Below, one piece after another: positions 223-43,516 of a stretch of DNA of 64,000 nt (its first letter is position 1; each line of letters starts with the position of its first letter). Origin of the DNA: an uncultured Gammaproteobacteria bacterium (GTDB lineage Bacteria; Patescibacteriota; Microgenomatia; Levybacterales; UBA12049); the NCBI GenBank assembly GCA_964637955.1, contig CAZWXQ010000001.1, forward strand, positions 223,447 to 287,446, in the 5' to 3' direction. The translations under genes and the position numbers were made by a program. The notes under the pieces were generated by a model. That model did no database searches, was not told where the DNA came from, and saw only the letters and a program-made list of their open reading frames with translations.

Positions 223-259
223 GTTGGCTAAATAACCTAAGTGTTATAATTTCTCCAGG

Positions 260-565
260 ATGGATGATTTTGTGATCAATTTTAAATCTAGTTTGTGGGT
301 TTGGGATGGCCCAAATCCTTGGTATTTTATAACAGTTCCTGAAAAAGAATCAAAGATTATAAGGGAAAGATTTAGGCATGTTCATAGGGGGTGGGGTTCT
401 GTTCCTGTGACAGTTCAGATAGGTGACAGTACATGGAAAACATCTATATTTTGGGAAAAAGCAGGAACATACATGCTTCCAATTAAAAAAGAAATCAGAA
501 TTAACGAAGATATTAAAGTTGAGCAGAAAATAAAAGTCGCTTTAGAGTTTGAGGAATTGCTTTAA
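260..565 (+). CDS. DUF1905-family small protein
   Basis: 101 aa. Motif pattern (GWGSVPVTVQIGDSTWKTSIF...GTYMLPIKKEIR) matches the DUF1905 fold that is often fused to YdeI/OmdA domains. TATAAT lies 9 nt before the ATG. Confidence 0.55.
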   Translation: MDDFVINFKSSLWVWDGPNPWYFITVPEKESKIIRERFRHVHRGWGSVPVTVQIGDSTWKTSIFWEKAGTYMLPIKKEIRINEDIKVEQKIKVALEFEELL

Positions 566-566
566 A

Positions 567-944
567 TTACTGAGCTGGGGTAGAAGGTGCAGCAGGTTTT
601 GAAGACATCTGTTTTTTTCCACCATATGCGCTACCACCGTATGAAGAAATATCACAGAAAAGTCCAATTCCTATCCAAAGCCAATCCCATCCTGTAATTC
701 CACCTGCAAAACTTGCAACATACATAAGCGTAGTCCATGGGAGAAATGCTACTCCTAATAACCCAAATATTACATTTGGGAAAGCTAGGTTATATCTTGC
801 AGGTTGAAGAAGCCACCAAAATACATTTCCAACTCTTGGGCCACCGATTAATAAAAGTAGAAATCCTAAAAAGAACATAAATAGCAGTATAGCAGTTATA
901 GGCAAATTGTAAAGGCACAAAAAATTATGCCCCCGGAGGGGCAT
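567..944 (-). CDS. small polytopic membrane protein; true start probably at an internal Met
   Basis: Three or four hydrophobic helices. The annotated N-terminus overlaps a perfect 13-bp palindrome (921-950), so the real start is probably the internal Met (MFFLGF...). Confidence 0.4.
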   Translation of the reverse strand: MPLRGHNFLCLYNLPITAILLFMFFLGFLLLLIGGPRVGNVFWWLLQPARYNLAFPNVIFGLLGVAFLPWTTLMYVASFAGGITGWDWLWIGIGLFCDISSYGGSAYGGKKQMSSKPAAPSTPAQ

Positions 945-950
945 AATTTT
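921..950. repeat. perfect 13-bp inverted repeat AAAATTATGCCCC-cgga-GGGGCATAATTTT
   Basis: GC-cored hairpin flanked by A- and T-tracts (bidirectional terminator-like). Overlaps the annotated start of the minus-strand ORF 567-944. Confidence 0.6.
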
Positions 951-1087
951 GTATCATCCTGTGATAACTAATACGCTCTATATTAGGAGTTTATTTAAAA
1001 GCAAACACTAAATGTGTAGTAGTTTGTAAGAATATGTGCAGAATATATCTAATTGCTAACTGATTAGATTGGTACTAGAATCAATTT

Positions 1088-1858
1088 ATGAGCGAAGCAG
1101 ATCCCGGTCAAAAATCTGCTCAGATTTCAGGATCTTTTGATTTATCTAAGCCAGAATTAACACCTCGCCAATTCCAAGCTTTTGATTTTGCGCGAAGTGG
1201 TTGCACTGTCCAGAGCTCAGCTGTTGAACTAGGTGTTGGAGATAGAACTATTGAATATCATCGCTTAGAAGCATTGAAAAGGTTGGGTTTAAATAGCGCA
1301 GCAGATTCAATGGTGGGTTTTGAAAATATATCCGTTGAAATTAGAGAGCCAGATTCTTCATCTCTTGAACCTGTTCCAGTAATAATTCCGATTTATGATA
1401 GTTCATCTTCCTCCTTATCTCCACGACAAAAAGATGTAATAAGTTTAGCTGGAAGCGGGTTATCAAATTCACAAATCGCAGAAAGATTAGGAATTTCTCA
1501 ACACACAGTTGTCCAGCACAGGAGAAGAGCTAGAAGTAAATTGGGTGCAGGAACTATAATGGATGCAGTTTTTATAGCTGTAAGTAAAAGAGAAATTGAT
1601 CCGGAAGATATTGTGCCAGCTGGATTTGATCCAGCCAGATTTAGAAGTTTAAGTCCAAGGCAAAGAGAAGTGTATTGTGCAATAGTTTCAGAAAATGGGT
1701 ATATCCCATATAAAGAGTTAGCTAGAAGATTTGGAATAAAAGAACAGACTTTTAAAAATATAGCAGGTAGGCTATTTAAAAAGTTGGGATTACATGGAAG
1801 AAACCAAGCAGAGGCAGTAAACATTAAAGAAAACCAAGCAGTTATTTTATCGAGCTAG
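1088..1858 (+). CDS. LuxR/GerE-family transcription regulator with three tandem HTH modules
   Basis: Three repeats of L(T/S)PRQ...G.S...IA..LGIS..TV..H...KLG (residues ~25-68, ~110-153, ~188-235). No receiver or ligand domain is visible. Confidence 0.6.
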   Translation: MSEADPGQKSAQISGSFDLSKPELTPRQFQAFDFARSGCTVQSSAVELGVGDRTIEYHRLEALKRLGLNSAADSMVGFENISVEIREPDSSSLEPVPVIIPIYDSSSSSLSPRQKDVISLAGSGLSNSQIAERLGISQHTVVQHRRRARSKLGAGTIMDAVFIAVSKREIDPEDIVPAGFDPARFRSLSPRQREVYCAIVSENGYIPYKELARRFGIKEQTFKNIAGRLFKKLGLHGRNQAEAVNIKENQAVILSS

Positions 1859-2725
1859 TTTAATTTTGCCTGATTTTATGCAGTTCTCGCAGATAATTCC
1901 ATAAACATCATCTTTGCCTTTCCAATAATTCACGAGATTTTCTGAAGTTGCTTCACAGATTCTACATTTGCCGACTACTTTATGATTTTCATCATCAAGA
2001 TTAAATCCCATTGTTTCGCGCCCATCAAAAACTAAGAGTTTGCCTTCGAAATATGTATTGGGATACTTTTCCATAAAAGTCACAATTCCATTTTCGAGTT
2101 GGTAAACATCTTTAAATCCATATTTGATTAATAATCCCGAAGCTGTTTCGCATCTTACGCCGCCGGTGCAGACTGTTACTACGGTTTTATCTTTTAAATT
2201 TGAAATTGATTCAATAGCTTGTGGTACATCGCGGAAATGCCCGAGTCCAGCTGGCCAAATGGAATTTTTAAATCTTCCCACCTCAAATTCATAATCATTT
2301 CGCATGTCTACTACATAAAATTCTCGTCCATTTTCGTACCACTCTTTCAGTTTTTCAGCAGGTAAATGTTTTCCGGTTATAGCGCCACCTTTATTTCCAT
2401 TGACTAACGGACCGAAGTCTTTATTTGGGATTCCTGTGGTTACAATTTCAGGTCTAACTTTTACAGAAAGTTTTCTAAATGCTTTTCCTGTTCCTTCAGA
2501 CTTTTTCCAATTTATTCCTTGGAGTTTGAAATTCTTCTCAGTTAGTTCTATATATTTGTTTGTATTTTCCACGGTTCCTTCAAGCGTTCCGTTTATTCCT
2601 TCCTCAGCAATAATTATTCGTCCCTTTAATCCAAGAGCTTCACAATATGCGCGGTGAATAGTCATGAGTTCCTGCGGTTTCTTAATTTTTACGTACTTAT
2701 AATAAAGTAAAATCTGATATTTCAT
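1847..2725 (-). CDS. trhO: rhodanese-domain tRNA U34 hydroxylase TrhO (UPF0176/YceA family)
   Basis: 292 aa. N-terminal 'YYKY' region, a rhodanese domain with active-site CTGGVRCE, and a C-terminal Cys-rich tail (CRICE...CENC) typical of YceA/TrhO. Confidence 0.8.
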   Translation of the reverse strand: MKYQILLYYKYVKIKKPQELMTIHRAYCEALGLKGRIIIAEEGINGTLEGTVENTNKYIELTEKNFKLQGINWKKSEGTGKAFRKLSVKVRPEIVTTGIPNKDFGPLVNGNKGGAITGKHLPAEKLKEWYENGREFYVVDMRNDYEFEVGRFKNSIWPAGLGHFRDVPQAIESISNLKDKTVVTVCTGGVRCETASGLLIKYGFKDVYQLENGIVTFMEKYPNTYFEGKLLVFDGRETMGFNLDDENHKVVGKCRICEATSENLVNYWKGKDDVYGIICENCIKSGKIKLAR

Positions 2726-2733
2726 GGTTTATA

Positions 2734-3447
2734 TTATAGCCCAGGTTTAGGGTCAATGGAAAGTTCTTGAGTCTCTGTTGCTTGGGGAATCTCAGATTCA
2801 ACCTGAGTAGGCAAGGTATCAACAGGTTTTGCGGTAGTTTCTTTAAAGAATAAAGTTTTCTTTGTAAATGGCCTTTTGCCAGAAGATTCAATTTCAGATT
2901 CTGGAAATCCAAGTAAATTCCAGGTTTCTTCAATTCCTTCAAAGGTAAAATCTCTTGTAGTATTTTCATCTATTCTAAAATGCATTAAGCCATCATCTCC
3001 TCCATATCTTAGCCATAAGCTAAGAGCTTTTAGAAACCACTGATTTATAAGTGCATTCGTAGCATTTGTGGGGAACATTTTAGAAGTCTGAGCTACAAAT
3101 CTTGCTGTATTTGCAGCAAGATTAATAGTAGTTTTAGTATCTGTTTCCATCGTATTTGTATCCAGGTTGAATCTATTTGGATATGGAATCAGGGCAGCAT
3201 CTTTTACCGTTACCGTTAATTCTTCTCCACCAATAGGCTGAACCAGGACTCCTCTGTCAGCAAGAATCCCTGTTTTAATAACTGCTATAGCGGTATCGAC
3301 TGGATCTTTCTTTTCTCCAATTAAATTATCATACACGCTGGATGGCATTTCTAATTTTTGGTCTCCAAGAACTAAAATTTGATCGCGATCTCTATAAAAT
3401 CCTGCATTTATTAATCCATCTGATGGTTGTGGGTTTTCTACGCTCAT
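2734..3447 (-). CDS. hypothetical protein
   Basis: 237 aa ORF co-oriented with and 66 bp downstream of ORF 3514-4125. No recognisable motif. Confidence 0.4.
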   Translation of the reverse strand: MSVENPQPSDGLINAGFYRDRDQILVLGDQKLEMPSSVYDNLIGEKKDPVDTAIAVIKTGILADRGVLVQPIGGEELTVTVKDAALIPYPNRFNLDTNTMETDTKTTINLAANTARFVAQTSKMFPTNATNALINQWFLKALSLWLRYGGDDGLMHFRIDENTTRDFTFEGIEETWNLLGFPESEIESSGKRPFTKKTLFFKETTAKPVDTLPTQVESEIPQATETQELSIDPKPGL

Positions 3448-7292: not shown

Positions 7293-7320
7293 ATTTATTT
7301 ACCTGCTATAATTTCCTCAA

Positions 7321-7767
7321 ATGAAAAAAGGTGTTGATTACATTGGTGTTGGCGTAGGTGCTGCTTTATTTAAAGATGGAAAAGTTTTCTTGGCTCATCG
7401 TGGTCCAAAAGCCAAAAATGAAAGAAACACATGGGAGATTCCAGGAGGTGGTGTGGAGTTTGGTGAGACATTTGAGAATGCATTGAAGCGTGAAATTAAA
7501 GAAGAGATTGGGGTTGAGATTGAGATAGTAGAGCTTCTTGGAATTTGTGATCATATTATTCCAGATGAAAAGCAACATTGGGTTTCACCTACTTATATTT
7601 GCAAAATAATTAAAGGAGAGCCGAAGATTCTTGAGCCTGAGAAATGTGATCAAATAGGTTGGTTTACTCTAAAAGAAACAGAAAACATGTCTATTTCACT
7701 TGTTACACAGCATGATATTAGAATATTGAAAGAAAAATTCCCAAAAGGTTTGCCTACAGATTTATAG
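7321..7767 (+). CDS. NUDIX hydrolase
   Basis: Nudix box GGGVEFGETFENALKREIKEEIGVEI. TATAAT lies 8 nt before the ATG. Confidence 0.8.
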   Translation: MKKGVDYIGVGVGAALFKDGKVFLAHRGPKAKNERNTWEIPGGGVEFGETFENALKREIKEEIGVEIEIVELLGICDHIIPDEKQHWVSPTYICKIIKGEPKILEPEKCDQIGWFTLKETENMSISLVTQHDIRILKEKFPKGLPTDL

Positions 7768-7785
7768 TGTTATAATCTTCAGGCT

Positions 7786-8139
7786 ATGGAAGACGCTGAG
7801 TTCGAGAAATTATTAATCGAAGCCTTGGATTCACTTCCTCCGCAGTTTGCAAAAAGAATGGAAAATGTTTCAGTTACTTTTGCAGATGAGCCCACTATTT
7901 ATCAACTCAGAAAAATGAAGCTTCCACCATGGGCTTTGATGTTTGGGCTTTATGAGGGTGTTCCGTTGACAAGGAGAAGTGGGAATTATTCAGGTTTTTT
8001 GCCAGATAAGATTACTATTTTTAAAAATGCAATTCTGCGCGTAGCTGATACTCCTGAAAAAATTAAAGCGCAAGTTCGCTCTACAGTTATACACGAGATT
8101 GGTCATCATTTCGGTTTAACTGATGAACAGATGAAATAA
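7786..8139 (+). CDS. small zincin-like metallopeptidase-family protein (PF06262/DUF1025-like)
   Basis: 117 aa with C-terminal HEIGHHFGL (HExxH). Its last 42 bp are duplicated at 8887-8928. Confidence 0.7.
   Translation: MEDAEFEKLLIEALDSLPPQFAKRMENVSVTFADEPTIYQLRKMKLPPWALMFGLYEGVPLTRRSGNYSGFLPDKITIFKNAILRVADTPEKIKAQVRSTVIHEIGHHFGLTDEQMK
8098..8139 (+). repeat. direct repeat, copy 1: native 3' end of the zincin peptidase gene
   Basis: 42 bp. 39/42 nt match 8887-8928 and all three mismatches are synonymous in the zincin reading frame. Confidence 0.85.
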
Positions 8140-8185
8140 GTCCTATAGTTTATTTTCGCCTCAAAATCTGATATAATCTCCTGTT

Positions 8186-8878
8186 ATGTCACCTGATTTT
8201 AGAGAAGCAAAGCTTCCGACAGTTACACTTGAGAGGGCATTGATTGAAACATCAAGTAGTCCAAAAAAGATTTATCGTGGATTAAGTGCAATCGATGTAG
8301 CAAATTTTCAACCTGACATAGATGAAGTTATCAATTACTCATTAATTCATCCTAGTAGACATGAAGCAGCAAAACTAATTTATCTAGATCCTGAAGGAAG
8401 AATCTCATTTTCCAAGTTAATTGAAGGAGGAGAAAATTTTGTAGATACACCAGATCCTGATTTGCGGAGATCAATACTTCTGGGAAGAAGAACAATTGCA
8501 AGAGTGCACAGTCATCCTTTGGGTACAGATTTTAGCTTGAGTGATCTAGCTAGTTTATTGACTAAACCATCATTGCCTGCATCAAATACTGCGAAGTTAT
8601 TAGTAACGCCAGATAGAATATCAATCGCATTTCGAGGTGAAAATACTCCAGGGTTTAGTTTTTATGAAGCGAAGAGATTAGCAGAGAGATTAGATTTATT
8701 ATTAGAAAGATTGATTCAGGAATATAGGACTCCTGAGATAACACAAGAAGAATTTGTTCGACTTGTTTTGGGAATTCACAGATCAGCAATTGAGTCAATG
8801 ATTAGTCAATTCGATATCCAAATTTTTGAAGGCTATAGAAGTGAAAGACTTTTACAAAGAGTTCGTGCAAAAGCATAA
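8186..8878 (+). CDS. hypothetical protein with a JAMM/MPN-like H-x-H...S..D motif; sits inside a repeat-bounded insertion
   Basis: 230 aa. VHSHPLGTDFSLSD resembles the JAMM metal-binding motif (spacing off by one), with Glu upstream. TATAATCTCCTGTT precedes the ATG (leaderless design). Confidence 0.4.
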   Translation: MSPDFREAKLPTVTLERALIETSSSPKKIYRGLSAIDVANFQPDIDEVINYSLIHPSRHEAAKLIYLDPEGRISFSKLIEGGENFVDTPDPDLRRSILLGRRTIARVHSHPLGTDFSLSDLASLLTKPSLPASNTAKLLVTPDRISIAFRGENTPGFSFYEAKRLAERLDLLLERLIQEYRTPEITQEEFVRLVLGIHRSAIESMISQFDIQIFEGYRSERLLQRVRAKA

Positions 8879-8886
8879 AAGAACAA

Positions 8887-8928
8887 GTTGGTCATCATTT
8901 CGGTTTAACTGATGAGCAGATGAAGTAA
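8887..8928 (+). repeat. direct repeat, copy 2: orphan copy of the zincin gene 3' end including the stop codon
   Basis: Encodes VGHHFGLTDEQMK* against the native IGHHFGLTDEQMK*. Lies just downstream of inserted ORF 8186-8878. Confidence 0.85.
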
Positions 8929-8929
8929 T

Positions 8930-9178
8930 TTAGATTGTTTCATCTGCTATTTCTTCGTATTCGGTTACAGTTTTTTTAACCCTGCCTCCTTTTGTGCCTA
9001 TTAATCCAGATATGTTGTTGTATCTGTCTGAATTGTTGTATTTAACAATAGCCCAGAAACCAAGAACCATAACTGCAATTATAACCACAGCCCAGAAAAA
9101 CTCCGTTGGAGTTATTCCCAAAGCAGTTGAAATAGAATCCGTTTGCGGAATAGTATTTACTGATTGTGCAAGTTTCAT
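8930..9178 (-). CDS. small membrane protein
   Basis: 82 aa with one central TM helix. Strong SD (AAGGAGGTG) 5 nt upstream on the minus strand. Confidence 0.45.
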   Translation of the reverse strand: MKLAQSVNTIPQTDSISTALGITPTEFFWAVVIIAVMVLGFWAIVKYNNSDRYNNISGLIGTKGGRVKKTVTEYEEIADETI

Positions 9179-9484
9179 AATTTCACCTCCTTAGAAATCT
9201 CTTAGTAAACGGAGTGAGCTTTAGAGTTTCTTATACTTAGATCAAAGATCTAAGTATCGAATCTTAATGAACACTCTAACTAAGGATATTAGATTTTCTC
9301 TTAAGTTCAAAACTTAAGAAGAACTGTGACTATATTAACTTTTTAACTGCTAAATGCAGCAAGAGTGAGGTAATAAATTGGTATGAAAAATGGAAAATTT
9401 ATGTCTATGAATAATTTCATACCCAGAGTAATACAACTATTCAAATTTAGTTATTCTGCAGTAAGGCTAACCCATTTTACCTAT

Positions 9485-9513
9485 TGACAGGCCTAGAGTT
9501 AGCATGATATAAA
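9485..9513 (+). promoter_or_regulatory. sigma70-like promoter upstream of rpoB (TTGACA-N17-TATAAA)
   Basis: TTGACA at 9485-9490, a 17-nt spacer, TATAAA at 9508-9513. Confidence 0.5.
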
Positions 9514-9554
9514 CGTATTACTTTAAGACAAAATTCCTTTTTAATTAAAGGGTT

Positions 9555-9578
9555 GATGCACCTGCGTGCATTTTTTTG
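9555..9578 (+). terminator. leader hairpin plus U-tract between the promoter and the rpoB start (putative attenuator)
   Basis: ATGCAC-ctgc-GTGCAT stem-loop followed by TTTTTTT, about 28 nt before the rpoB ATG. No upstream + strand gene for it to terminate. Confidence 0.5.
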
Positions 9579-9605
9579 TCGATATAAACTGCCCGCTATA
9601 ACTAA

Positions 9606-12600
9606 ATGCCGAAAGCTGATATTAAAGACAACAAGCAAATAGCACGAGAGGACTGGGGGAAAAAGTTTCCTGTACTTCCAGAACTTGATCTTTTGACCAT
9701 TCAGAAAGAATCATATGAATGGTTTGAAGAGCACGGAATTGGTGAAGTATTGCAAGAAATTTCTCCTATCGAGGATTTCACAGGTAAAAACTGGACTCTC
9801 ACTCTTAAAGATTACAGAATTGGTAAGGCTACGAATACGCCTCAACTGTGTTTAATTAAAGGCCTTACATTCGATGCTCCTCTTTACGCAAAAGCAACAC
9901 TCCTAAATAAAAAAACTGAAGCAGAAATAGATCAAGAAGTTTTCCTTGGAGATATTCCAAAGATGACAGAGCGAGGAACATTCATCGTTAATGGAATTGA
10001 AAGAGCAATCGTAAACCAGCTTGTTCGATCACCTGGAGTATTCTTTACAGCAACTCAGGACGTAGTTACAGGTCAAACTCTTTATACAGCTGAAATTAGA
10101 CCAGTTCATGGATCATGGCTCGAATTTACAACCACAAGATATGAAACAATTACTGTAAAGATTGATCGCAGAAGAAAGTTTTTAGCTTCAACTTTCCTTA
10201 GAGCTATTGGTGTTTCAGATAATGATTTAATAAGAGAAAAATTCAGAGATGTAGAAGCTGATGGCAAAACTAGTTATATAAATAATACTCTTACAAAGGA
10301 TGAAACAGGTTCACAAAATGAAGCTCTTATCGAAATCTTTAAAAAGATGCATCCAGGAGAACCAGTAGTTATTGATAAGGTTAAAGAAAATTTCTTTGGA
10401 ATGTTCTTTAACAATAGAAGATATGATCTCGGAGATGTCGGACGTTATAAAATTAACAAGAAATTAAAAGATATTCCTGGATTTAATCCAACTGAAGAGA
10501 GAATTCTTACTATTGAAGATATCATCGCTACCATCTCCTTCCTTATTGAGCTATCAAAAGGTAGAGACGGCGTTGATGATATTGATTCACTAGCAAACAG
10601 AAGAGTTCGAAGAGTTGGAGAATTAGTTGCTTCTACTGCATTCAGAGTTGGAGTGCTTAGGCTTGAAAGAAGTATTAAGGAAAGAATGTCACTTATTACT
10701 CCAGAAGTTCCTGTCACAGTCGCAGGACTTATTAATGCCAGACCTATTATGGCCTCAATTAATGAATTCTTCAGAACCTCTCAGCTCTCAACCATCCTCG
10801 ATCAAACAAATCCACTTTCAGAAATTGATAATCTTAACCGCTTAACTGTGATGGGAACAGGTGGAATTAGTCGAGAAAGAGCAGCATTCTCTATTCGTGA
10901 TATTAACTCCAGTCAGTACGGTAGGATTTGTCCTATCAGAAGTCCCGAGGGTCCAAACATTGGTTTGGTTACATATTTAGCTTTATATACCAAAGTAAAT
11001 AAGTATGGATTCTTGGAATCTCCATATAGAAAAGTTGAGCACAATGGTAAGGTTTCAAGAGCAACTGATCAAATTGAATATATGGCTGCAGATGATGAGC
11101 GCGAGCATTATGTAACTCATTCTGGAGTATTAAATGACGATCAAACAATAACTCATGAAAGAGTTCCTGCTAGATATAAGGGTGAATTTATTGAGATTGA
11201 TAAAGAAAAGATTGAATATATCGATGTTGTTCCTCGACAAGTTGTAGGAACAGCAGCATCTCTTATTCCTTTTGTTTCGCATGATGAAGCAAATAGAGCG
11301 CTCATGGGAACTCATATGCAGAGTCAGGCAGTTCCACTTGTGCAGCCACATTCTCCTATTGTTGGAACTGGTATGGAAAAAACAGTCTCACAGGTTATGG
11401 GAAGAGTATTTTATGCACCTGAAGATGGAGAGATTGAATATGCAGATGGAGATAGAGTAGATTTCGTAGGAAAAAGTGGAAAAGTTTCATATAAAGTAGA
11501 TTCATTCCAAAGAACTTCTCAAGCTACTGCATACACTCAAAGAACAATGGTAGAGAGTGGACAAAAAGTTAAAAAAGGAGACCTTCTCGTTGATGGTCCT
11601 TCATCTGAAAATGGTGAATTAGCACTTGGACAAAATTTACTTATCGCATATGCATCATATGATGGACTTGGATACGAAGACGCTATCGTTATTTCAGATA
11701 AATTAGTAAAAAAAGATGTTTTATCTTCAATTCATATTGAAAAATATGAAGCAGCAGTTGTTGAAACTAAATTAGGACCTGAAGAAACAACAAGAGACAT
11801 TCCAAATGTAGGAGAAGATCAGCTTTTGAACTTAGATGAAGACGGAATCGTAGTAGTTTCATCTGAAGTTGGACCTGGAGATATTCTTGTTGGAAAGATT
11901 GCACCAAAGGGTGAAACTGAACTTACTGCAGAAGAAAGACTTCTTCGCGCTATTTTCGGAGAGCAAGCAAGGGAAGTTAGGGATACATCGCTTAGAATGC
12001 CAAATGGAGAAAGAGGAACAGTTATTTCAGTTCAAATTCTTGATCGCAAAAAAGGTGATGAGCTAGAGCCAGGATGTTTGCGCAAAATTATCGTTGAAGT
12101 AGCGCAGTTCAGACATGTTGTAGTAGGAGATAAGCTCGCTGGAAGACATGGAAACAAAGGAGTTATTTCTAGAATCGTTCCAGAAGTTGACATGCCATAT
12201 CTCGAAGATGGAACTCCAGTTGATATTATCATTTCACCTATTTCAGTACTTGCTCGTATGAACCTTGGTCAGCTTCTTGAAGCTCATCTTGGTTGGGCAG
12301 CGCTAACTCAGAATAAAAAAGTAGGAGTCCCAGTATTCGAAGAAGTTCATGAATCAAACATTGTAAATGAGCTTAAGAGTGCAGGACTTCCTGAAAATGG
12401 AAAAACCAAGCTTTATGATGCTAGAACTGGAGAACTTTATGAGAACTCAGTTGTGGTTGGAGTAAGTTACATAATGAAGCTTATACACATGGTTGAGGAT
12501 AAGACTCATGCAAGAAGTACAGGACCATATTCATTAGTTACTCAGCAGCCACTCGGTGGAAAAGCACAAATGGGAGGCCAGCGTCTTGGGGAGATGGAGG

Positions 12601-17277: not shown

Positions 17278-17751
17278 ATGAGACATTCTAAAGTAAGTAA
17301 AAGAAGAGACATACAAGAAGATGCAGTTTATAATAGTATTATAGTCAGTAAGCTCATAAATAATATTATGCGAGATGGTAAAAAAACCGTTGCTGCAAAT
17401 GTAGTTTATGACACTTTTGATATCTTGGCTAAAAAAGAAGACCCTCTTTCTCTTTTTGAAAAAGCTATTCAGAATGTAGGACCTAAGACTGAAATTAAGG
17501 CTAGAAGAGTAGGTGGAGCATCCTATCAAATCCCTATCGAAGTAAGAGGAGAAAGAAGAACTGCGCTAGCTTTAAGATGGATTATTGAGGCATCTCGTGC
17601 AAAATCAAACAAAGATTTCCATACTTTTCCAGAAAAACTCGCCGATGAAATCATGTCAGCATCAAATAATGAAGGAGCAGCTATTAAAAAGAGAGATAAT
17701 GTACATAGAATGGCAGACGCAAACAAAGCTTTCTCTCACTTCAGAATATAA
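17278..17751 (+). CDS. rpsG: 30S ribosomal protein S7
   Basis: ASYQIPIEVRGERRTALALRWII motif. Its last 42 bp are duplicated at 18196-18238. Confidence 0.95.
   Translation: MRHSKVSKRRDIQEDAVYNSIIVSKLINNIMRDGKKTVAANVVYDTFDILAKKEDPLSLFEKAIQNVGPKTEIKARRVGGASYQIPIEVRGERRTALALRWIIEASRAKSNKDFHTFPEKLADEIMSASNNEGAAIKKRDNVHRMADANKAFSHFRI
17710..17751 (+). repeat. direct repeat, copy 1: native 3' end of rpsG
   Basis: Matches 18196-18238 with only synonymous differences; both copies encode (M/L)ADANKAFSHFRI*. Confidence 0.85.
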
Positions 17752-17770
17752 TTCTCCCACCCGTTTAATT

Positions 17771-18136
17771 ATGGATCGTTTAGAAGATAGAAATCGAGCC
17801 TCTGAAATAGAATTTAAGAAAAGATCTCATTTTGCTCTTGTTAAGACTACTCTAGTCGCAGTCAAAAGTATGGAGGGTTTTGAAGGGTCTGCAAATATGA
17901 AAGATGCAGTGTTAAAGAGGGCATTATATTATGCTACTTTAGCTTTGCCTTCTCATGTTTCATATCTTGATTTAGGGGATGGAGCTGTGTTTGAAAGAAC
18001 ACCAGATCAGCTGAAAAATATTCCTGAAGAACAACGACAAGGATGGGATTTAAAAAAACTTGATTTGTATGCTGCGGAATTGGCTCAAAGTTTAAATATG
18101 GATTGGACGCCATTTTATCCATCAAATCTTAATTAA
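17771..18136 (+). CDS. hypothetical protein inside the insertion between rpsG and its orphan 3'-end copy
   Basis: 121 aa starting at the first ATG after the rpsG stop. The 17585 start in the ORF track overlaps rpsG out of frame and is rejected. Confidence 0.4.
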   Translation: MDRLEDRNRASEIEFKKRSHFALVKTTLVAVKSMEGFEGSANMKDAVLKRALYYATLALPSHVSYLDLGDGAVFERTPDQLKNIPEEQRQGWDLKKLDLYAAELAQSLNMDWTPFYPSNLN

Positions 18137-18195
18137 GAATTATTAAAAATCTAAAGTATTTAATTAGGTAAATAATAGACTGAAAATAATCGTAA

Positions 18196-18238
18196 ATTGG
18201 CAGACGCTAACAAGGCCTTCTCCCACTTCAGAATCTAA
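18196..18238 (+). repeat. direct repeat, copy 2: orphan synonymous copy of the rpsG 3' end including the stop codon
   Basis: Encodes LADANKAFSHFRI* with 6 synonymous substitutions relative to 17710-17751. Confidence 0.85.
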
Positions 18239-18283
18239 GTTTGACTTTTGTTCAATATCTTTTCTCGTTTAAGTTAATTTCAA

Positions 18284-18832
18284 TTAAGATTTAGGACCTC
18301 TTCTTTTTAGGAGTTTAAGCAGGGGAAGATAGGGATTTAGGGCGTCGGAATTTTGCATGATTTGTCTTTTTGCATCACTACCAACTTTACATTTAAGCAT
18401 TCCCATCAAGGCTTGTCCAACCTGCTCAGAGGCGTTGAAAGCTCTGTCTGTAAGTATGTCTCCATGATGTCCATCAAATAGATCCTTGAGCATGGTTGTG
18501 TATAAATTTAAAATTTCGCTCAGACCTTCTCCTGGGGGATTTGGTGTATACCAAGAGTAGCAGTTATTCCATAAGCCAATTACTCTTTCGCCTCTTGATG
18601 ATGGACTCAGATCTGAGAGATTGGTCAGGTCTACACGATCCTCTTTATATGTGCCATCTAGTCCACCTTCGTATGCCATGCTTGCTCCTAAATTAAATTG
18701 TGTAGCAAGAGTAGTATTTAAAACTTTTACGATTAAAGGATGCTCTGGAATAGGAGAGATGGTAGTCGCCATAACTCTTTGATTGCCTGAATCTATAGTA
18801 TATATGCCCGGTCTTCCTTCATATTCAATCAT
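18284..18832 (-). CDS. hypothetical protein
   Basis: 182 aa. Minus-strand TTGTTT-N17-TATAAT sits 8 nt before the ATG. Moderately acidic, GC-richer than the core genes. Confidence 0.4.
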   Translation of the reverse strand: MIEYEGRPGIYTIDSGNQRVMATTISPIPEHPLIVKVLNTTLATQFNLGASMAYEGGLDGTYKEDRVDLTNLSDLSPSSRGERVIGLWNNCYSWYTPNPPGEGLSEILNLYTTMLKDLFDGHHGDILTDRAFNASEQVGQALMGMLKCKVGSDAKRQIMQNSDALNPYLPLLKLLKRRGPKS

Positions 18833-18940
18833 AATCAGGTATTATAGTCACTTAATTACTCATAAACAAGCCTTAACTATCAAATTATTCATAATCCTAT
18901 AGTTGAAGTTTGTTTTTAATTTCTATATAATTCCTCAGTT

Positions 18941-19879
18941 ATGATTGAAGCTCTAGAAAGAGAATTGGTTCCTCCTGAAAAACCTAGATTTTGGTGGGGA
19001 GAAGACTTAGTTTCTGCAGGATACGAGCAAACAGTTTTTGGTTCAAGTGAAACAACTGAAATTGCTGTTTTTCCTCAGGGGGACAGTTTTCCGACTGATG
19101 GAAAAATCCTTGGAACATCAATTGCGACTAAAAGCAGAATTGCACAATGGGGTGGCGAGGTGGTTCAGAGTGGAGTTGTAAAAATTGCGCAGGCCAGCGA
19201 AGAATCACAGACGCTCCAATATCAAAAAGAAGCTAGGGTTCTAATGAAAAGTCATACTGGAAATAATCTTATAATTCCTCCGAATACGCCATTATTTGGT
19301 TTGTATTCTCAAGGACCAGCTATAGTTGGAGAAGAGTTATATGAAATGGTGGGAAGCGGTAAGGACATTGATATTGAGGGAAAGAGAGGAAGGGCATGGG
19401 ATTTTGTATATGAAAATCCATATAAGAAAAAAGTTGAAGAAATTATCGGTATCGCAAATGAAATCGATAATACTAATAGATGGTATATTCCAAGAGGAAT
19501 AGATTTGAACCTAAAAGATTTGACAAATGCAGGTAGGGATTATAGAAAAGTAGTAAACCGTCCATATGTCGATGTCAAAAGAGGTGAGGCTACAGATATT
19601 TGGTTTGGTGAGCTTCGTGGACTTAAGTTGAGCCGCAGGGTGGCAATTGAAATCGCTAAGCCAATTGTGCCAAAGCTAGCTGTGGCTGCAGATGTTAAAA
19701 AAATGGAAGAGCAAAGAATTTATCCGAATGGAAGACATATCGGAGCAAGGCTTCTTCATCCAGGGTCAGGATTAAATAATCCTGAAGGCTGGCCAATACG
19801 AGTTGAAATTGATACAAGAGGTTCAGTTCAAAAACCAGGAGCTGTTATTTTCCGTGTTATGCGTGCAGAGACTATTTAG
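18941..19879 (+). CDS. hypothetical protein
   Basis: 312 aa, divergent from 18284-18832. TATAAT lies 9 nt before the ATG. Confidence 0.4.
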   Translation: MIEALERELVPPEKPRFWWGEDLVSAGYEQTVFGSSETTEIAVFPQGDSFPTDGKILGTSIATKSRIAQWGGEVVQSGVVKIAQASEESQTLQYQKEARVLMKSHTGNNLIIPPNTPLFGLYSQGPAIVGEELYEMVGSGKDIDIEGKRGRAWDFVYENPYKKKVEEIIGIANEIDNTNRWYIPRGIDLNLKDLTNAGRDYRKVVNRPYVDVKRGEATDIWFGELRGLKLSRRVAIEIAKPIVPKLAVAADVKKMEEQRIYPNGRHIGARLLHPGSGLNNPEGWPIRVEIDTRGSVQKPGAVIFRVMRAETI

Positions 19880-19882
19880 CAA

Positions 19883-20116
19883 TTGACAATTCATGATTTA
19901 AGACATATATTCGGATTTGTGGAAAAATTTACTAAGACTGTTTCAGAAGCTATATTAAGTCTTCCACCTTCCCCTTTTATTGCTGGAGAACAAATGGCTG
20001 CGCTTGTAAAAATTAAAAAGCCGAAGGATCCAAAAGTTTTACGTGTAGATTCTGAAGTTGAATTAAGTTCTGTAACAATTGTTGTACCTAAAAAGGCGCA
20101 GCTACAGGGAATTTAA
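19883..20116 (+). CDS. doubtful small ORF (needs a TTG start)
   Basis: 77 aa. Its only in-frame start at this position is TTG. Confidence 0.2.
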   Translation: MTIHDLRHIFGFVEKFTKTVSEAILSLPPSPFIAGEQMAALVKIKKPKDPKVLRVDSEVELSSVTIVVPKKAQLQGI

Positions 20117-20665
20117 ATGAAAAGTTTTTATGCGAAAGATCGAGGCCAATGGCGTGATTGGTTAGCCGCAAATCATGATAAGGAGGCTGAAATTTGGCTA
20201 ATCTATTATAAAATAGCCTCTGGAAAACCATTCGTGAGCTATAATGACGCAGTTGAAGAAGCGATTTGTTTTGGGTGGATTGACTCCACTCAGCGCCCAA
20301 GAGATAGCGAAAGCTATATGCAGAGATTTAGTCCACGAAAAGATTCTAAAAATTGGTCTGAATTAAATAAAGAAAGATCAAGAAAATTAATTAAGAATAA
20401 GCAAATGACTCCGTTTGGTTTAAAAATGTTAGAAGGAATTGATCTTTCATATCAGCCAATTGTTTTATCATCCGAAATTGAAGCTGCTTTAAAATCAGAT
20501 TCAGAAGTATGGACAAATTGGAATAAATTTGATCATGTATATCAAAGGCTTCGTATAGGCTATATTTTAGAAGGTAAACGTCAGGGAAAAGAAGAGTTCG
20601 ATCGACGACTTAATTCATTTATTAAAGCTACTAAGAAAAATAAAAAGATCGGGACAATCATTTAG
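20117..20665 (+). CDS. YdeI/OmpD-associated (OmdA) family protein
   Basis: Pattern W..WL..NH.....IW......G....SY.DAVEEAICFGWIDS......QRFSPRK..S.WS is typical of PF13376. Confidence 0.6.
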   Translation: MKSFYAKDRGQWRDWLAANHDKEAEIWLIYYKIASGKPFVSYNDAVEEAICFGWIDSTQRPRDSESYMQRFSPRKDSKNWSELNKERSRKLIKNKQMTPFGLKMLEGIDLSYQPIVLSSEIEAALKSDSEVWTNWNKFDHVYQRLRIGYILEGKRQGKEEFDRRLNSFIKATKKNKKIGTII

Positions 20666-20792
20666 GTTGTTTTAGCTCGAAAGGTCTAGTATTTAAAGAC
20701 TGGGAAGGACTTATGACAGGTGTATATATAAAAACTTTATTTTTTGCCTTTATCTATTGACAAAGAATTTCATTAGATCTACTTTATAATTA

Positions 20793-22295
20793 ATGAGGAA
20801 ATTAATTTTTTCTGCTTTTTCGATTATTTTTCTAGCTTTAGTTTTTGTTCCTGATAGCTTGGCTGCAACTACTTCAACCCTTCTTCCAACAGCTGATGGA
20901 GCATACTCTCAATTCACACCAAAAAGCGGATCAGTACATTACACTCAGGTAGACGAGGCATCATGTAATGGAAATACTGATCATAATAGAACTACAGTAG
21001 TTGGATCAAGAGACTCTTATATTGTTTCACTGTCTTCGATACCAAATAATTCTACGATAACTCAAATATCATTAACTCCTTGCGCGTCAAGAAATTCAAC
21101 TGGTGGTGTAAATCCTCAATTAGATTTATTTTATCGATTAAATGGTGTTAATAGTGCAGATGCGGGCGCATATTCACTTACCGGCACAGCTCCGATTGAT
21201 TTATTATCAACAAATTTTTCAGGGCTTTCGATTGTAAAAACTGTTTCAACAACTCTTGAAGTAGGAGCAGTCTTAACTTCAAGTACAAAGGGGGTAAAGC
21301 TAGGTAGATTAGCGACTGTTATAACTTATACTCTTCCCTCACCAACTGCAACTACAAGTAGCGCTACGAATGTAATGACTAGCGGATCATCTTCATCAGC
21401 AACTCTTAATTCTATAGTCAATCCAAATGGAGTAAGTACTAGTGTATTTTATCGTTATGGTTTATCAAACGTAGAATGTAGTTCTTTGACTTCATCAACA
21501 AGCGCTGTTGCCATTGGATCTGGAACTTCTAGTGTTAGTCCTAATGCAACCAGCGTAGGGTCTCTTAACCCCGCTACCACATATTATTTCTGTGCTGTTG
21601 GGACGAGTGCAAGTGGAACTTCATATGGAAATGTACTTTCGTTCGTTACTCCTGGTTCAGCTCCGACAGTTACGACTAATACTGCAACAGATTTATCTAC
21701 GAACTCAGCGATTCTTAATTCGACCGTTAATCCAAACGGAGTCTCGACTTCAGTGAGTTACAAATATGGTACTGTAAATACAACTTGTGATTTACTTTCC
21801 TCATCGACAAGCGCAACTGCTATTGGATCAGGAACATCTGATTTAACGCCTAATGCGAAAAGTGTTGGGTCACTAAGTCCTTCTACTGCATATTATTTCT
21901 GTGCAGTGGGAACTAGCTCAAGTGGCACAGCATACGGTAATGTAATTTTATTTACAACTTCTGCTCTTCCAATTGCTCCGACTGTTACCACAAATGATGC
22001 TACCGAGTTGGCTGTAGTTGGTTCATCTGCTTCGGCAAGTTTAAATTCAACAGTTAACCCTAACGGCACTAGTACAACTGTTAGATATAGATATGGTACT
22101 ATAAATACTGCTTGCAGTGCTTTGGGTAATCAGACCTCAGTAGTCAATATTGGTTCAGGAAGTCTAGATGTTTCTCCCAACACTAGGTCTATTGGTTTTT
22201 TGCCAAAAAATACAACTTTCTATTTCTGTGCAGTAGCAGCCAATTCTGTTGGAACTACATACGGAAATGTCCTCTCCTTTACAACTCTCCCATAA
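20793..22295 (+). CDS. secreted protein with an N-terminal signal peptide and three tandem Fn3-like repeats
   Basis: Signal peptide FLALVFVPDSLAA. Three ~100-aa repeats share NPNG.ST...Y.YG...C...IGSG......YYFCAV.....GT.YGNV. Likely cell-surface protein. Confidence 0.6.
   Translation: MRKLIFSAFSIIFLALVFVPDSLAATTSTLLPTADGAYSQFTPKSGSVHYTQVDEASCNGNTDHNRTTVVGSRDSYIVSLSSIPNNSTITQISLTPCASRNSTGGVNPQLDLFYRLNGVNSADAGAYSLTGTAPIDLLSTNFSGLSIVKTVSTTLEVGAVLTSSTKGVKLGRLATVITYTLPSPTATTSSATNVMTSGSSSSATLNSIVNPNGVSTSVFYRYGLSNVECSSLTSSTSAVAIGSGTSSVSPNATSVGSLNPATTYYFCAVGTSASGTSYGNVLSFVTPGSAPTVTTNTATDLSTNSAILNSTVNPNGVSTSVSYKYGTVNTTCDLLSSSTSATAIGSGTSDLTPNAKSVGSLSPSTAYYFCAVGTSSSGTAYGNVILFTTSALPIAPTVTTNDATELAVVGSSASASLNSTVNPNGTSTTVRYRYGTINTACSALGNQTSVVNIGSGSLDVSPNTRSIGFLPKNTTFYFCAVAANSVGTTYGNVLSFTTLP
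21340..22295 (+). repeat. three tandem ~310-bp coding repeats (Fn3-like modules)
   Basis: Protein-level periodicity is clear. DNA copies have diverged (estimated 60-70% identity by eye). Confidence 0.6.
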
Positions 22296-22345
22296 ATTAA
22301 AACTTATAGTTTGATTTTTGATTTCCTAGCTTGTAAAATATAGCT

Positions 22346-22885
22346 ATGACTGTAGATACAAGACCTGATCAAATGAATTTTGGTCTTCTGGATCCCGGAA
22401 ATATCGATCTTGATCCTGAAGTAATTGAGCATAGGCGTATTCAAGTTATTATTAATGGTGCAGTAATGGGACTTGATAATCCCAATATTCCAAATAGACT
22501 TTTGATGGATTCAGATCCATTGCCTACTATCACATATGATGAGATTAAAGATTATGGTGCATTTCTTCATGAAACAGAGGGTGGAAATAAGATTTTAGTT
22601 GTGACGCAAAATCCAGACGCATTAAAATCTCCAGAAGTAGTGCTCACAGAATTAAGAGAAAGAGCGGCAAGAAGGATAAATGGCATTGGAAGACTTACTT
22701 TTTTAAGAGCAGGAGAGGTGATGCCTCAGCTAGAGCGAGATAAGGGTAATGCTGGGACTTTGTTAAAAGAAACGAAAAGATTTGGTAGGGATAGTGGACA
22801 TGAGTATTTGGGCACGGTTCAAATTATGCAGGCTGCAGCTGGAGAAATGCCTTTTGTTCCTTACTTACCCCCTGTACAAAAATAA
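22346..22885 (+). CDS. hypothetical protein
   Basis: 179 aa acidic ORF; the last gene of the rpsG|fusA island. Confidence 0.4.
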   Translation: MTVDTRPDQMNFGLLDPGNIDLDPEVIEHRRIQVIINGAVMGLDNPNIPNRLLMDSDPLPTITYDEIKDYGAFLHETEGGNKILVVTQNPDALKSPEVVLTELRERAARRINGIGRLTFLRAGEVMPQLERDKGNAGTLLKETKRFGRDSGHEYLGTVQIMQAAAGEMPFVPYLPPVQK

Positions 22886-22970
22886 ATAAACTTAATCTTC
22901 TAGATTCTAAGAAAAATTTATGGTATACTCATTTAGCTTCCAATTGGGAAGCTTTTTTAAAGATTAAACT

Positions 22971-39120: not shown

Positions 39121-39162
39121 TTAGCTTTAATCTCGAGGCTAAATGCGGTATAATCTCCTCTC

Positions 39163-39738
39163 ATGTCATTTGAAAGATTTAGAATATATAGCTCTTCTGA
39201 TTCCGGTTATTATACAAGGGGAAAAGAAAAACCTAGGCCATTATTAACGGACGAATTTGCGCAACAAATTTTTGCTGTAAGTCAGCATCTTGATGATGAA
39301 TTGCCTGTGGCGAGTCTAATAGCATATTCAGAAGATAAGAGGAAATTATTTAAAAACCAGATAGCAAGGGAGATAGCCATAAGAAATGGTCGTGCAAAAA
39401 ATATACCAAGCTCAAACCTTGAGCAGATAGAAAATAATGCTTTGGCAATTGATGCTTTAAAGTTAAGATTGGGTCGATTAGATTCGCTTCCTTTAGCTCC
39501 AGACATATGGGCCGATTTGTTTATACCCGGATCTGAAATTGAGCTTGATATTCCTCAAAAAAAAGTTTTGATGGATGCTATAACTGGCACGCTAAAGATT
39601 CCAAATGCAAAATTTACAAATAAATGGGTGGATTCTCAAAATACTGTTTACAATTTAAGATTAATCGATGATTCTTCGGAATTTCCACAAGACCCAAGGC
39701 TACCTCGTACAAGAATATTTCTAGCAAAAGCATTTTAA
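39163..39738 (+). CDS. hypothetical protein
   Basis: 191 aa. GGTATAATCTCCTCTC-ATG is almost identical to the element before ORF 8186. Confidence 0.35.
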   Translation: MSFERFRIYSSSDSGYYTRGKEKPRPLLTDEFAQQIFAVSQHLDDELPVASLIAYSEDKRKLFKNQIAREIAIRNGRAKNIPSSNLEQIENNALAIDALKLRLGRLDSLPLAPDIWADLFIPGSEIELDIPQKKVLMDAITGTLKIPNAKFTNKWVDSQNTVYNLRLIDDSSEFPQDPRLPRTRIFLAKAF

Positions 39739-41108: not shown

Positions 41109-41226
41109 GATGATGGATTATAGATTTTTGTTTATTTAAAATCAAATTTAGAAAGCATATTTTTATTTCTATTTCTTGTATTTGCATACGATTGACAATT
41201 AAATTAGCTTTTGAAAAGATGAAATT

Positions 41227-42657: not shown

Positions 42658-42688
42658 GACTTATCTATCCTCTTGTATTTGCATAAGA

Positions 42689-43516
42689 TTGACAATTATT
42701 TACGCATTAAATACATTATTCTTAGTGGCTAAAAATAAAATATCTTCAGAGAGAAATTATTTAAAAATTTTTATTGGGCTTTTTATAGCAATATTTTTGA
42801 TTGTAATTCCTGTGATTTTTTACCCATATAGCAAAAATTCAATAAACGTAATTCCAGCTGGAATAATAGTATTTATCGATCAAGGTGATGTGGTTGTAAA
42901 AAAAGATGGACTAACAAATAAGATAACTAACTGGGGATATAATTCCGATCCTGTTTTGTCACCAGATAAAACTAAGATTGCATTTATATCGAAGTCAGAA
43001 GAAACTCTAAATGCTGAAAAAAATCCAACAGGATTTATACCTAGTTCATCGAACATTTGGATAATCGATATCGATGGTCATAATGCTAAAAAATTAACAG
43101 ATCATATAGATTTCGTTGGGAGAGATAATTTACGTTGGTTAGAAAATAATCGTTTGATTTATTCAGAAGGTGAGGATTCAGTGCGATTATATGATTTAGA
43201 AGCAGAAGAGATAACGACCTTGATGGGTCCAGTTGAGCCTGTTCCTGGCTGCGTTGATGCTTGCGGATATTCAACTTCATTTAAATATACGCCTGATAAT
43301 AAGTTACTGGTTTGGATTCTTTCTTCTGATGGAGAAGGATCAAAGATGCGAGTACTAAATCTGGGAGATTTTAGCACTAAAGAGGTAGATCTTCCTTTTG
43401 GTTATATCTCTGAGCTACATGTTGATAATCAGTTTTTAACAGGAGTTGTATTAAATTATGTTGATAATATTACCTCAAATTTAAAGGTTGATTTAAGAAC
43501 TGCAACCATTCAATAA
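42689..43516 (+). CDS. membrane-anchored PD40/TolB-like beta-propeller repeat protein
   Basis: N-terminal TM helix. Repeated (S/T)PD.(K/N)...F.S......IW..D.DG.N...LT blades. Confidence 0.45.
   Translation: MTIIYALNTLFLVAKNKISSERNYLKIFIGLFIAIFLIVIPVIFYPYSKNSINVIPAGIIVFIDQGDVVVKKDGLTNKITNWGYNSDPVLSPDKTKIAFISKSEETLNAEKNPTGFIPSSSNIWIIDIDGHNAKKLTDHIDFVGRDNLRWLENNRLIYSEGEDSVRLYDLEAEEITTLMGPVEPVPGCVDACGYSTSFKYTPDNKLLVWILSSDGEGSKMRVLNLGDFSTKEVDLPFGYISELHVDNQFLTGVVLNYVDNITSNLKVDLRTATIQ

Follow-up and report, generated by a model that had tools for sequence, protein, structure and literature searches.

The 64-kb stretch of DNA analyzed here (contig CAZWXQ010000001.1; hereafter the window) is part of the genome of a Levybacteria-like member of Patescibacteria, and it raises the question of how a gene can come to lie directly behind an intact gene and yet be followed by a second copy of that gene's own last codons. 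Patescibacteria, or Candidate Phyla Radiation (CPR), have tiny genomes with few recognizable mobile elements and many small, strain-variable genes, whose entry route is poorly understood. At the locus in question, a 789-bp unit, consisting of a replacement tail, a promoter spacer of ~46 nt, a JAMM/MPN-like gene, and a further 8 nt, is inserted ~41 nt before the stop codon of a zincin-like metallopeptidase gene, at a point inside the codons of the conserved HEIGHHFG metal motif. Because the insert brings its own last 13 codons and stop, the zincin gene stays intact, while the resident tail is pushed 789 bp downstream, where it persists untranslated and still forms a terminator hairpin with the convergent gene. 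We consider it likely that this is a real, recurrent insertion process directed at gene ends.

The duplication is evident from direct comparison of the two copies. The end of the zincin open reading frame (ORF) reads ATT GGT CAT CAT TTC GGT TTA ACT GAT GAA CAG ATG AAA TAA, while the second copy reads GTT GGT CAT CAT TTC GGT TTA ACT GAT GAG CAG ATG AAG TAA. The two are identical at 39/42 positions, with an A/G difference at the first base (I to V) and two synonymous differences (GAA/GAG and AAA/AAG). A repeat scan independently recovers the pair at a spacing of 789 nt, and a 41-mer of the tail finds only these two sites when up to 3 mismatches are allowed (100 shuffles gave 0.00). The initial annotation, which had reported the recurrence of the last 42 bp, the two synonymous changes with an I-to-V change at the boundary, and a single 230-aa ORF filling the interval, is borne out on each of these points. 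The leaderless-type promoter it had assigned to this ORF is likewise plausible, as the TATAAT-ATG layout is enriched in the window: a TATAAT 7-10 nt upstream of an ATG occurs 19 times versus 6.0 expected, mostly at ORF starts (14/19). Leaderless-type promoters thus appear to be the norm in this genome, with examples at 245-262, 7307-7323, 7771-7788, 8172-8188, 18926-18943, and 39149-39165. Over the entire zincin locus, independent Logan assemblies of two runs (SRR14271336 and SRR14271335) match the window at 100% identity.

Which of the two tails is the resident one is answered by related genomes. Five of these (L083, L085/L086, L087/L088, L089, and a contig from the Joint Genome Institute, JGI) carry an empty site, which is the insert-free allele by which the initial annotation had proposed to judge the insertion. 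Their zincin sequences are 91-96% identical to that of the window at the amino acid level (80-83% at the nucleotide level), the MliC-NUDIX-zincin-…-rpoB synteny is kept, and the empty target site reads …CACGARATYGGNCAYCAYTTYGG…. In all of them, a convergent gene of 78-85 aa lies 1-7 nt past the zincin stop. The 82-aa ORF of the window is homologous to the 78-82-aa genes that stand directly after zincin in L083 and L085-L089; the orphan adjoins it at a distance of 1 nt, and the downstream flank aligns with the relatives. Because the orphan sits in the empty-site context of the relatives, that is, a zincin stop followed by the convergent gene, it is the resident tail, pushed out of place; the ancestral state is the empty site, and the sequence from ~8098 to 8886 is the insert. 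A search for closer empty-site relatives with the exact S7 protein returned the same strain only. In L085, the NUDIX gene between MliC and zincin is swapped for an unrelated 228-aa ORF with no Pfam match (9290-9976, compared to 7321-7767 of the window).

The hairpin formed by the orphan has a minimum free energy of -18.4 kcal/mol (z -2.8), whereas the upstream tail copy has no comparable structure (z 0.2). The hairpin is co-adapted to the orphan: G8916, which is specific to the orphan, pairs with C8947 in the stem. Shorter stems (CAGATGA/TCATCTG) are found in L083 and L087, and the hairpin is not significant in the relatives. A search for known RNAs in 7700-9700 returned just a sub-threshold miRNA-hairpin match, on the terminator. 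A longer, decayed orphan that would extend into the 3' end of the cargo (in-frame 'IKEQV') was considered and rejected, as the resemblance is at chance level (457/500 shuffles); the alignment of the cargo C-terminus with its own family also counts against it.

The differences between copies bear on the origin of the upstream tail. All internal differences are synonymous at both zincin (2/2) and a second locus in the window, rpsG (5/5), while in a zincin locus of another genome (L109), 5 synonymous codons stand against 1 non-synonymous codon. We modeled in-situ duplication followed by drift, with the coding copy taking synonymous changes only and the orphan taking all, and under this model purely synonymous differences would arise with a probability of 0.0044 at rpsG, 0.08 at zincin alone, and 3.6e-4 at both jointly. 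The synonymous orphan pattern described in the initial annotation is therefore upheld at rpsG (5/5, P = 0.0044) and not significant at zincin taken alone; its weight comes from rpsG and the other genomes, and the case for a cassette origin of the upstream tail from the zincin locus alone is weak. To judge from their sequences, the two copies resemble the ends of orthologous genes that had evolved apart in separate genomes, under coding constraint, before being joined. Since the copies look like orthologous coding ends and the orphan is resident, the upstream tail would be the one that travelled with the cargo.

The rpsG locus (17278-18238) is a twin of the zincin locus within the same window. 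The initial annotation had pointed to it as the first instance of the structure, and the rpsG tail repeat is real (17713-17751 and 18200-18238), the 5 differences between its copies all being synonymous third positions (A/T, A/G, T/C, T/C, and A/C). The rpsG cassette is present in two further assemblies. When every ORF tail in the window is scanned mechanically, repeated tails turn up at zincin and rpsG only, and the same scan of ~0.95 Mb of other loci found no convincing gene-tail repeat. The 121-aa cargo protein of the rpsG cassette (ORF121) has no nuclease feature, and its structure model is of low confidence with generic helical matches only. In the translated rpsG copy, a synonymous ATA gives rise to a TATAAT that spans the stop codon (17747-17752); the orphan reads ATC TAA G and lacks this element. 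Beyond the orphan, ~5 kb (18239-22970) separate rpsG from fusA (22971-25106) and hold ORFs with almost no Pfam matches: 182 aa (minus strand), 312 aa, 77 aa, a DUF8412/OmdA protein, 500 aa, and 179 aa. The 500-aa ORF (20793-22295) contains internal direct repeats in three copies with a period of 309-327 nt (71-77% identical). This interval is a second variable hotspot, and L085 carries different genes after S7.

Outside the window, the architecture recurs in three other genomes, two of them at the same zincin gene end. Two contigs below 1 kb, obtained from two separate runs (L109 and L110), carry the closest homologue of the cargo, P0127 (35% identity). In L109, the zincin end …VRRTVIHEIGHHFGLSDSELR* (stop at 64-66) is followed by a 55-nt spacer with a TATAAT 9 nt before the ATG, a JAMM-like ORF (122-847), 4 nt, and an orphan tail, GAAATCGGCCAC–TTCGGCCTATCCGATCAAGAACTGAGATAA (852-891; EIGH-FGLSDQELR*), which leads into the rpoB promoter region. 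Between the two tails, five codons show synonymous changes, one shows a non-synonymous change, and one is deleted. The second zincin case, on a 444-kb JGI contig (L103) whose zincin protein is 67% identical, came to light when the zincin loci were re-scanned with looser settings: past the zincin stop come an adenylate-kinase-like gene and a Fic gene, then an in-frame stop and, 1.9 kb downstream, an orphan, GHHFGLSDAELDQEKGD*. This orphan matches the tail at 28/36 nt (null maximum 22), and some of the L103 codons (CTC TCC GAC GCC) match the allele type of a relative, L104. The L109 and L103 copies show the same synonymous bias as the window, and all three zincin duplications begin within the E-I-G-H codons of HEIGHHFG and finish at the stop codon. 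In the third genome (L111), family member P0130 (31% identity) follows a YceG gene, and a copy of the last 18 nt of YceG, matching at 15/18 positions, coincides exactly with the stop codon of the cargo, the place predicted for it, with no better match within 3 kb (P 0.01); this gene-end instance is suggestive at the sequence level. Because the architecture recurs at rpsG, in L109/L110, in L103, and more weakly in L111, we conclude that the process is recurrent and gene-end-directed, as the initial annotation had preferred over chance.

The spacers of the three JAMM cassettes (window, L109, and L111) align better than shuffles (p 0.001-0.005), a value inflated by generic promoter features, which makes homology of the window spacer with those of L109 and L111 suggestive. 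That the cassette promoter was copied from that of rpoB finds no support in the window (p 0.96) and is marginal in L109 (p 0.04). We observed no orphan tails in the 6-kb flanks of ~76 zincin loci from outside Patescibacteria, so that the structure does not belong to this gene in general, and a scan of JGI metagenomes with a degenerate tail pattern yielded 13 zincin contigs of the clade with one exact match each. Across 13 metagenomic loci, the zincin-rpoB interval is itself variable, being empty or holding one small gene or other genes. Two of the recurrent loci have further features of note. In L111, a 93-aa GIY-YIG gene (1921-2202) lies ~300 nt downstream of the JAMM-like cassette and outside it; it may encode a free-standing nuclease with a part in mobility or be there by coincidence. 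In L103, a 7-nt tandem repeat (ATTAACC x4) stands before the orphan, beyond which (255-3413) are Gp49/HigB-like and HTH_3 antitoxin-like genes, a DUF3800 gene, a 228-aa ORF, and an N6/N4 DNA methylase. The features of the two loci in the window are compiled in Table 1.

Table 1. Features of the zincin and rpsG insertions, in window coordinates.
Feature	Position	Strand	Basis or remark
Target gene, 117-aa Zincin_1 metallopeptidase-like, intact	7786..8139	+	Pfam PF06262 E 1.3e-29; synteny MliC-NUDIX-zincin-...-rpoB in relatives
Upstream tail copy IGHHFGLTDEQMK*, now the translated gene end, probably cassette-borne	8098..8139	+	Cassette sequence follows, not the ancestral downstream context
Cassette 5' spacer, ~46 nt, with -10 box TATAAT at 8172-8177, 8 nt before ATG	8140..8185	+	
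Cargo, 230-aa JAMM/MPN+-like protein (E60, H108-S-H110, S117, D120) with C-terminal helical/beta extension	8186..8878	+	
Junction AAGAACAA, 8 nt, from cargo stop codon to orphan tail	8879..8886	+	
Orphan untranslated tail copy VGHHFGLTDEQMK*, the displaced resident 3' end	8887..8928	+	1 nt from convergent gene end
Hairpin of 15 bp plus T-run, orphan 3' half and convergent gene end	8915..8948	.	Likely bidirectional terminator, inherited from ancestral arrangement
Convergent 82-aa membrane-like gene, ancestral downstream neighbor of zincin	8930..9178	-	54-70% aa identity to genes of relatives
rpsG translated tail ADANKAFSHFRI*	17713..17751	+	S7 Pfam E 1.9e-56; repeat scan
rpsG cargo ORF, 121 aa	17771..18136	+	
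Orphan rpsG tail, in-frame stop upstream	18200..18238	+	5 differences from translated copy

We turn to the cargo of the zincin cassette (ORF230), which has no Pfam or PADLOC match. A word-indexed search of 5.8 billion clusters returned only the protein itself, whereas an exhaustive HMMER search of 1.84 billion representatives recovered 44 proteins at E ≤ 1e-3, all of ~240 aa and the closest 31-36% identical. With 43 homologous clusters besides its own, it is not the orphan that the initial annotation took it for. In an alignment of 23 family members, E60, H108, H110, and D120 are at least 90% conserved, S117 is present, and a TPxR…FRG motif is seen. The JAMM-like reading proposed for this ORF stands with respect to the fold; its metal motif is H-x-H-x6-S-x2-D, one residue shorter than the canonical H-x-H-x7-S-x2-D. 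An AlphaFold model computed from the family alignment (pLDDT 91.9, pTM 0.87) adopts the MPN/JAB alpha-beta fold, with the isopeptidases PfJAMM1, Cap3, AMSH, and BilC as the best structural matches and RadC lower. By this model, the JAMM/MPN assignment is right at the fold level. Curated JAB profiles (Pfam JAB, Prok-JAB, RadC) do not match ORF230, and only 2/23 relatives touch Prok-JAB (best E 0.063).

When compared to the known JAMM/MPN+ metalloproteases (PfJAMM1, AMSH/Sst2, Rpn11, CBASS Cap3, and Bil BilC) and RadC-type JAB proteins, ORF230 differs in several respects. Its loop is one residue shorter (x6), it has no significant Pfam JAB match, its family has a specific C-terminal extension of ~80 aa, and its gene stands alone, without ubiquitin-like (Ubl), E1/E2, CD-NTase, or helix-hairpin-helix (HhH) partners. 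The family is a new stand-alone JAMM/MPN family, new to profile libraries, and the cargo is a solitary putative JAMM-type metalloenzyme that is probably active. A functional partnership between zincin and JAMM proteins was rejected, as other family members adjoin unrelated genes. A phage or plasmid origin of the cargo was likewise rejected, as no homologue was found by tblastn in 50,697 phage and 72,556 plasmid records. We infer that the JAMM-like cargo is a passenger rather than a proven engine.

What, then, moved the unit into place? Integrase, transposase, and homing-endonuclease domains are absent from the cassettes and from the ORFs scanned in the window, and the signature genes typical of ICEs (integrative and conjugative elements) or IMEs (integrative and mobilizable elements) are absent from those ORFs and from the same site in 20+ related loci. 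Because no recognizable recombinase or nuclease is encoded in any cassette, host homologous recombination is the most likely route. To the whole statement, that a block of tail and cargo was moved by host homologous recombination acting on imported DNA, we give an even chance. The combination of tail, promoter, and cargo would be a transferable block, in which the left homology arm is provided by the gene body with the upstream tail, and the right arm by the donor's orphan tail of ~40 nt. Such a block could enter a naive genome through recombination between its tails and the conserved tail of the target. The right-hand crossover would fall inside the tail and leave the recipient's own downstream context in place, which is the arrangement observed. 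The same logic could apply at rpsG in the genome of the window and at the zincin and YceG ends elsewhere, while the first making of each duplication and switches of target (zincin to YceG) would be rare illegitimate events.

Several points weigh against this explanation or limit its reach. The zincin and rpsG cassettes share no end motif beyond 7-11-mers, which are at chance level, so that a shared end motif or core was rejected and nothing marks a common enzyme site; the inverted repeats found are ordinary. The synonymous test is weak on the zincin locus alone (P ~0.08). No donor, excised circle, or intermediate is seen, and purely passive recombination leaves an unexplained illegitimate event behind each first duplication and behind the JAMM cassette's change of target between zincin and YceG. 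The common boundary could stem from the specificity of an enzyme rather than from descent of the architecture, and a trans-acting recombinase may be encoded elsewhere, the negative result for recombinases covering 64 kb of the genome. In addition, the distant JAMM-family members in L090 and L093 are ordinary stand-alone genes without flanking repeats. Finally, each instance is known from one strain, and the L109/L110 contigs are shorter than 1 kb.

The alternative that survives best, although we think it unlikely, is that the cassettes are integrase-dependent elements, either trans-mobilized or decayed in the manner of cis-mobilizable elements (CIMEs), for which a tyrosine or serine recombinase encoded elsewhere uses the gene end as its attachment site (attB). 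The cassettes would then be minimal attL-cargo-attR units left by deletion or riders on an incoming element, which we hold to be just as doubtful. The anatomy equals the attL and attR sites of elements that rebuild the 3' end of the gene they enter, as e14 does in icd, with icdC as the orphan (PMC13626634). Furthermore, the 3' ends of rpsI, rpmG, and rplL serve as targets for ICEs and IMEs, and both att sites persist in CIMEs and microCIMEs, which lack an integrase (PMC7563491). Three zincin events with one boundary and different cargo also fit an integrase, and the accessory and defence islet past the L103 orphan is consistent with an integration hotspot. Yet the absence of an integrase from the cassettes and scanned window ORFs extends to the flanks of L103, L109, and L111, the zincin and rpsG repeats have neither a common core nor arm-type repeats, and CIMEs are normally 1.2-13 kb long and found alongside their parent elements.

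Another possibility is that the cargo itself drives the movement. Under such cargo-driven homing, which we regard as improbable, the JAMM/MPN-like protein (at rpsG, ORF121) would be a site-specific enzyme that cleaves DNA or promotes recombination; it would cut the empty allele at the conserved motif, and repair of the double-strand break would copy in the cassette with its replacement tail. Three cassettes (window, L109, and L111) have the JAMM-like gene as their sole constant content, and the site hit is the gene's most conserved motif, a choice typical of homing enzymes. That the family of ORF 8186-8878 forms a new, non-canonical class of homing enzymes that recognize gene-end motifs (the zincin HEIGHHFG and the YceG tail) and drive the insertion of a replacement tail together with their own gene is, in our estimation, similarly improbable. 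The best structural matches are isopeptidases, with RadC ranking lower, and we know of no JAB domain for which DNA cleavage has been shown. The L103 and rpsG cassettes have the same architecture without a JAMM gene, the L090 and L093 homologues occur outside such contexts, and ORF121 is devoid of any nuclease feature. On the other side, RadC-type JAB domains have been suggested to act as nucleases (PMC3239186), and the same architecture is seen in the mobile ORFs (mORFs) of fungal mitochondria, in Allomyces macrogynus atp6 and in Glomus atp6/atp9/cox2/nad3 (PMC3630166).

The opposite possibility is that nothing is targeted and that the cases are unrelated one-off accidents of homology-facilitated illegitimate recombination during horizontal transfer. 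A donor fragment would be anchored in the conserved gene, with its other end joining a few dozen nt before the recipient's stop. This scenario, which we also consider improbable in both its general form and this detail, accounts for a foreign-looking upstream tail and for similarity that ends exactly at the stop codon. It needs no enzyme, and the cassettes lack common end motifs. However, it requires three independent zincin events to have boundaries no more than ~6 nt apart and both events in the window to have duplicated ~40 nt. It must also place one cargo family in three such contexts and yield 2 cases in 64 kb versus none in ~0.95 Mb of other loci.

We find it quite improbable that the insertion is ancient and vertically inherited, with precise repeat-mediated loss giving rise to the 'empty' relatives and gene conversion from the translated tail keeping the orphans similar. 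Direct repeats of 42 bp can mediate precise deletion, and the JAMM gene is present at zincin in two lineages with homologous-looking spacers. Nevertheless, a non-coding orphan would be expected to decay while the cargo diverged to 35% identity, yet it is 93% identical to the tail in its own genome, and the copies differ by synonymous rather than random changes. In the window, the orphan adjoins the 82-aa gene just as the zincin stop does in empty sites, whereas the L109 orphan abuts the rpoB promoter, and several independent precise losses would be needed. Lastly, an assembly or binning artefact joining two strains might be suspected in a metagenome-assembled genome, where repeats can give rise to chimeric joins. 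It is ruled out for practical purposes, as the identical structure is found in independent assemblies of separate runs and an intact ORF of a conserved family exactly fills the interval.

Other features of the window are recorded here in their own right. A conserved promoter region (TTGACAGGCCTAGAGTTAGCATGATATAAAC) precedes rpoB in the window (9470-9605), L084 (1690-1840), and L109 (893-969). It is followed by a conserved 'TACTTTAAGACAAAAT' block, with a hairpin and T7 run at 9555-9572, just upstream of rpoB. This conserved region may be a leader or attenuator and has no Rfam match. A 28-nt promoter-like repeat, TCTTGTATTTGCATA[C/A]GATTGACAATTA (27/28), at 41174-41201 and 42671-42698 stands upstream of two consecutive ORFs (41227-42657 and 42689-43516) without Pfam matches. 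In the ribosomal protein cluster, two genes (46755-47192 and 48491-48919) have similar Lys-rich tails (26/33 nt; one ending ...KASNDKGENK*), both of which are real gene ends and not orphans.

Returning to the reading of a tail-carrying block inserted at gene ends, the window locus, its rpsG twin, and the three loci in other genomes provide a concrete route of gene gain, in which single-gene units enter within the last ~14 codons of a conserved gene and nothing is broken. If general, an orphan gene tail after a strain-specific gene would be a simple sequence signature of recent gains and their polarity in metagenomes, one that lends itself to large-scale surveys, and it would flag chimeric 3' ends that can mislead marker-gene phylogenies such as that of rpsG. 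It would also frame a mechanistic question, namely whether such units move by passive recombination via 'portable homology arms', by an unseen recombinase, or by a new homing enzyme. Were the homing explanation true, these would be the first bacterial chromosomal equivalents of mORFs and the first DNA-directed JAB enzymes with a demonstrated role.

Among known systems, the closest parallels are the elements that replace the 3' end of their target. In E. coli, e14 restores the 3' end of icd and leaves the icdC orphan (PMC13626634), while streptococcal ICEs and IMEs insert in the 3' ends of rpsI, rpmG, rplL, and fda (PMC7563491). As in e14/phage 21 and the ICEs and IMEs, the element described here supplies the last codons, the target remains intact, and the resident 3' end is displaced, untranslated, to the far end. 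The copies likewise differ mainly by conservative or synonymous changes, and housekeeping gene ends, including those of ribosomal protein genes, are targeted. We observe the flanking repeats of the target-gene 3' end and the empty site in relatives that characterize such elements, whereas the zincin, rpsG, L103, L109, and L111 cassettes encode no integrase or recombinase. Moreover, e14/phage 21 and ICEs/IMEs are 10-100 kb and encode their integrase, while the units here are 0.5-1.9 kb with one or two cargo genes. The CIMEs and microCIMEs of streptococci, which lack an integrase and retain both att sites (PMC7563491), share the att-type repeats on both sides at a gene 3' end and a content of cargo only, without recombination or transfer genes. 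CIMEs are, however, deletion derivatives of ICEs and IMEs that move by accretion, and no parent element, integrase, or conjugation gene is seen here in the window.

In the mORFs of fungal mitochondria, a foreign C-terminus and an endonuclease ORF displace the native C-terminus, at several genes per genome (PMC3630166). The order is the same here, with the gene core, an inserted foreign C-terminus, one ORF, and the native C*-terminus, the native copy matching the relatives, and several genes are likewise hit within one genome. Unlike mORFs, which encode LAGLIDADG or GIY-YIG endonucleases of demonstrated activity, the ORFs here encode a JAMM/MPN-like protein, a 121-aa protein, or a kinase with Fic, and the setting is a bacterial chromosome rather than a mitochondrion. 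By Pfam, no cassette ORF contains a LAGLIDADG, GIY-YIG, HNH, or other recognized homing endonuclease, and the fold is that of JAMM.

Three further systems were considered and rejected. The template and variable repeats of a diversity-generating retroelement (DGR) do not fit, as G in the orphan stands against A in the gene, the rpsG changes are not adenine-specific, and no reverse transcriptase was found. An integron gene cassette is countered by the unit's own promoter, by a sole hairpin that is the inherited terminator, and by the absence of intI. The third was the orphan modules of polymorphic toxins. The unit behaves like the integrase elements, the CIMEs, and the mORFs alike. Membership in these classes fails for the integrase elements and mORFs because their defining enzyme is absent, and for CIMEs because no parent element is seen. 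In the literature searched, which was not exhaustive, we found no description of such elements in Patescibacteria. The units are miniature, enzyme-less, tail-carrying insertion cassettes, and it is their size, their missing engine, and their host group that are surprising.

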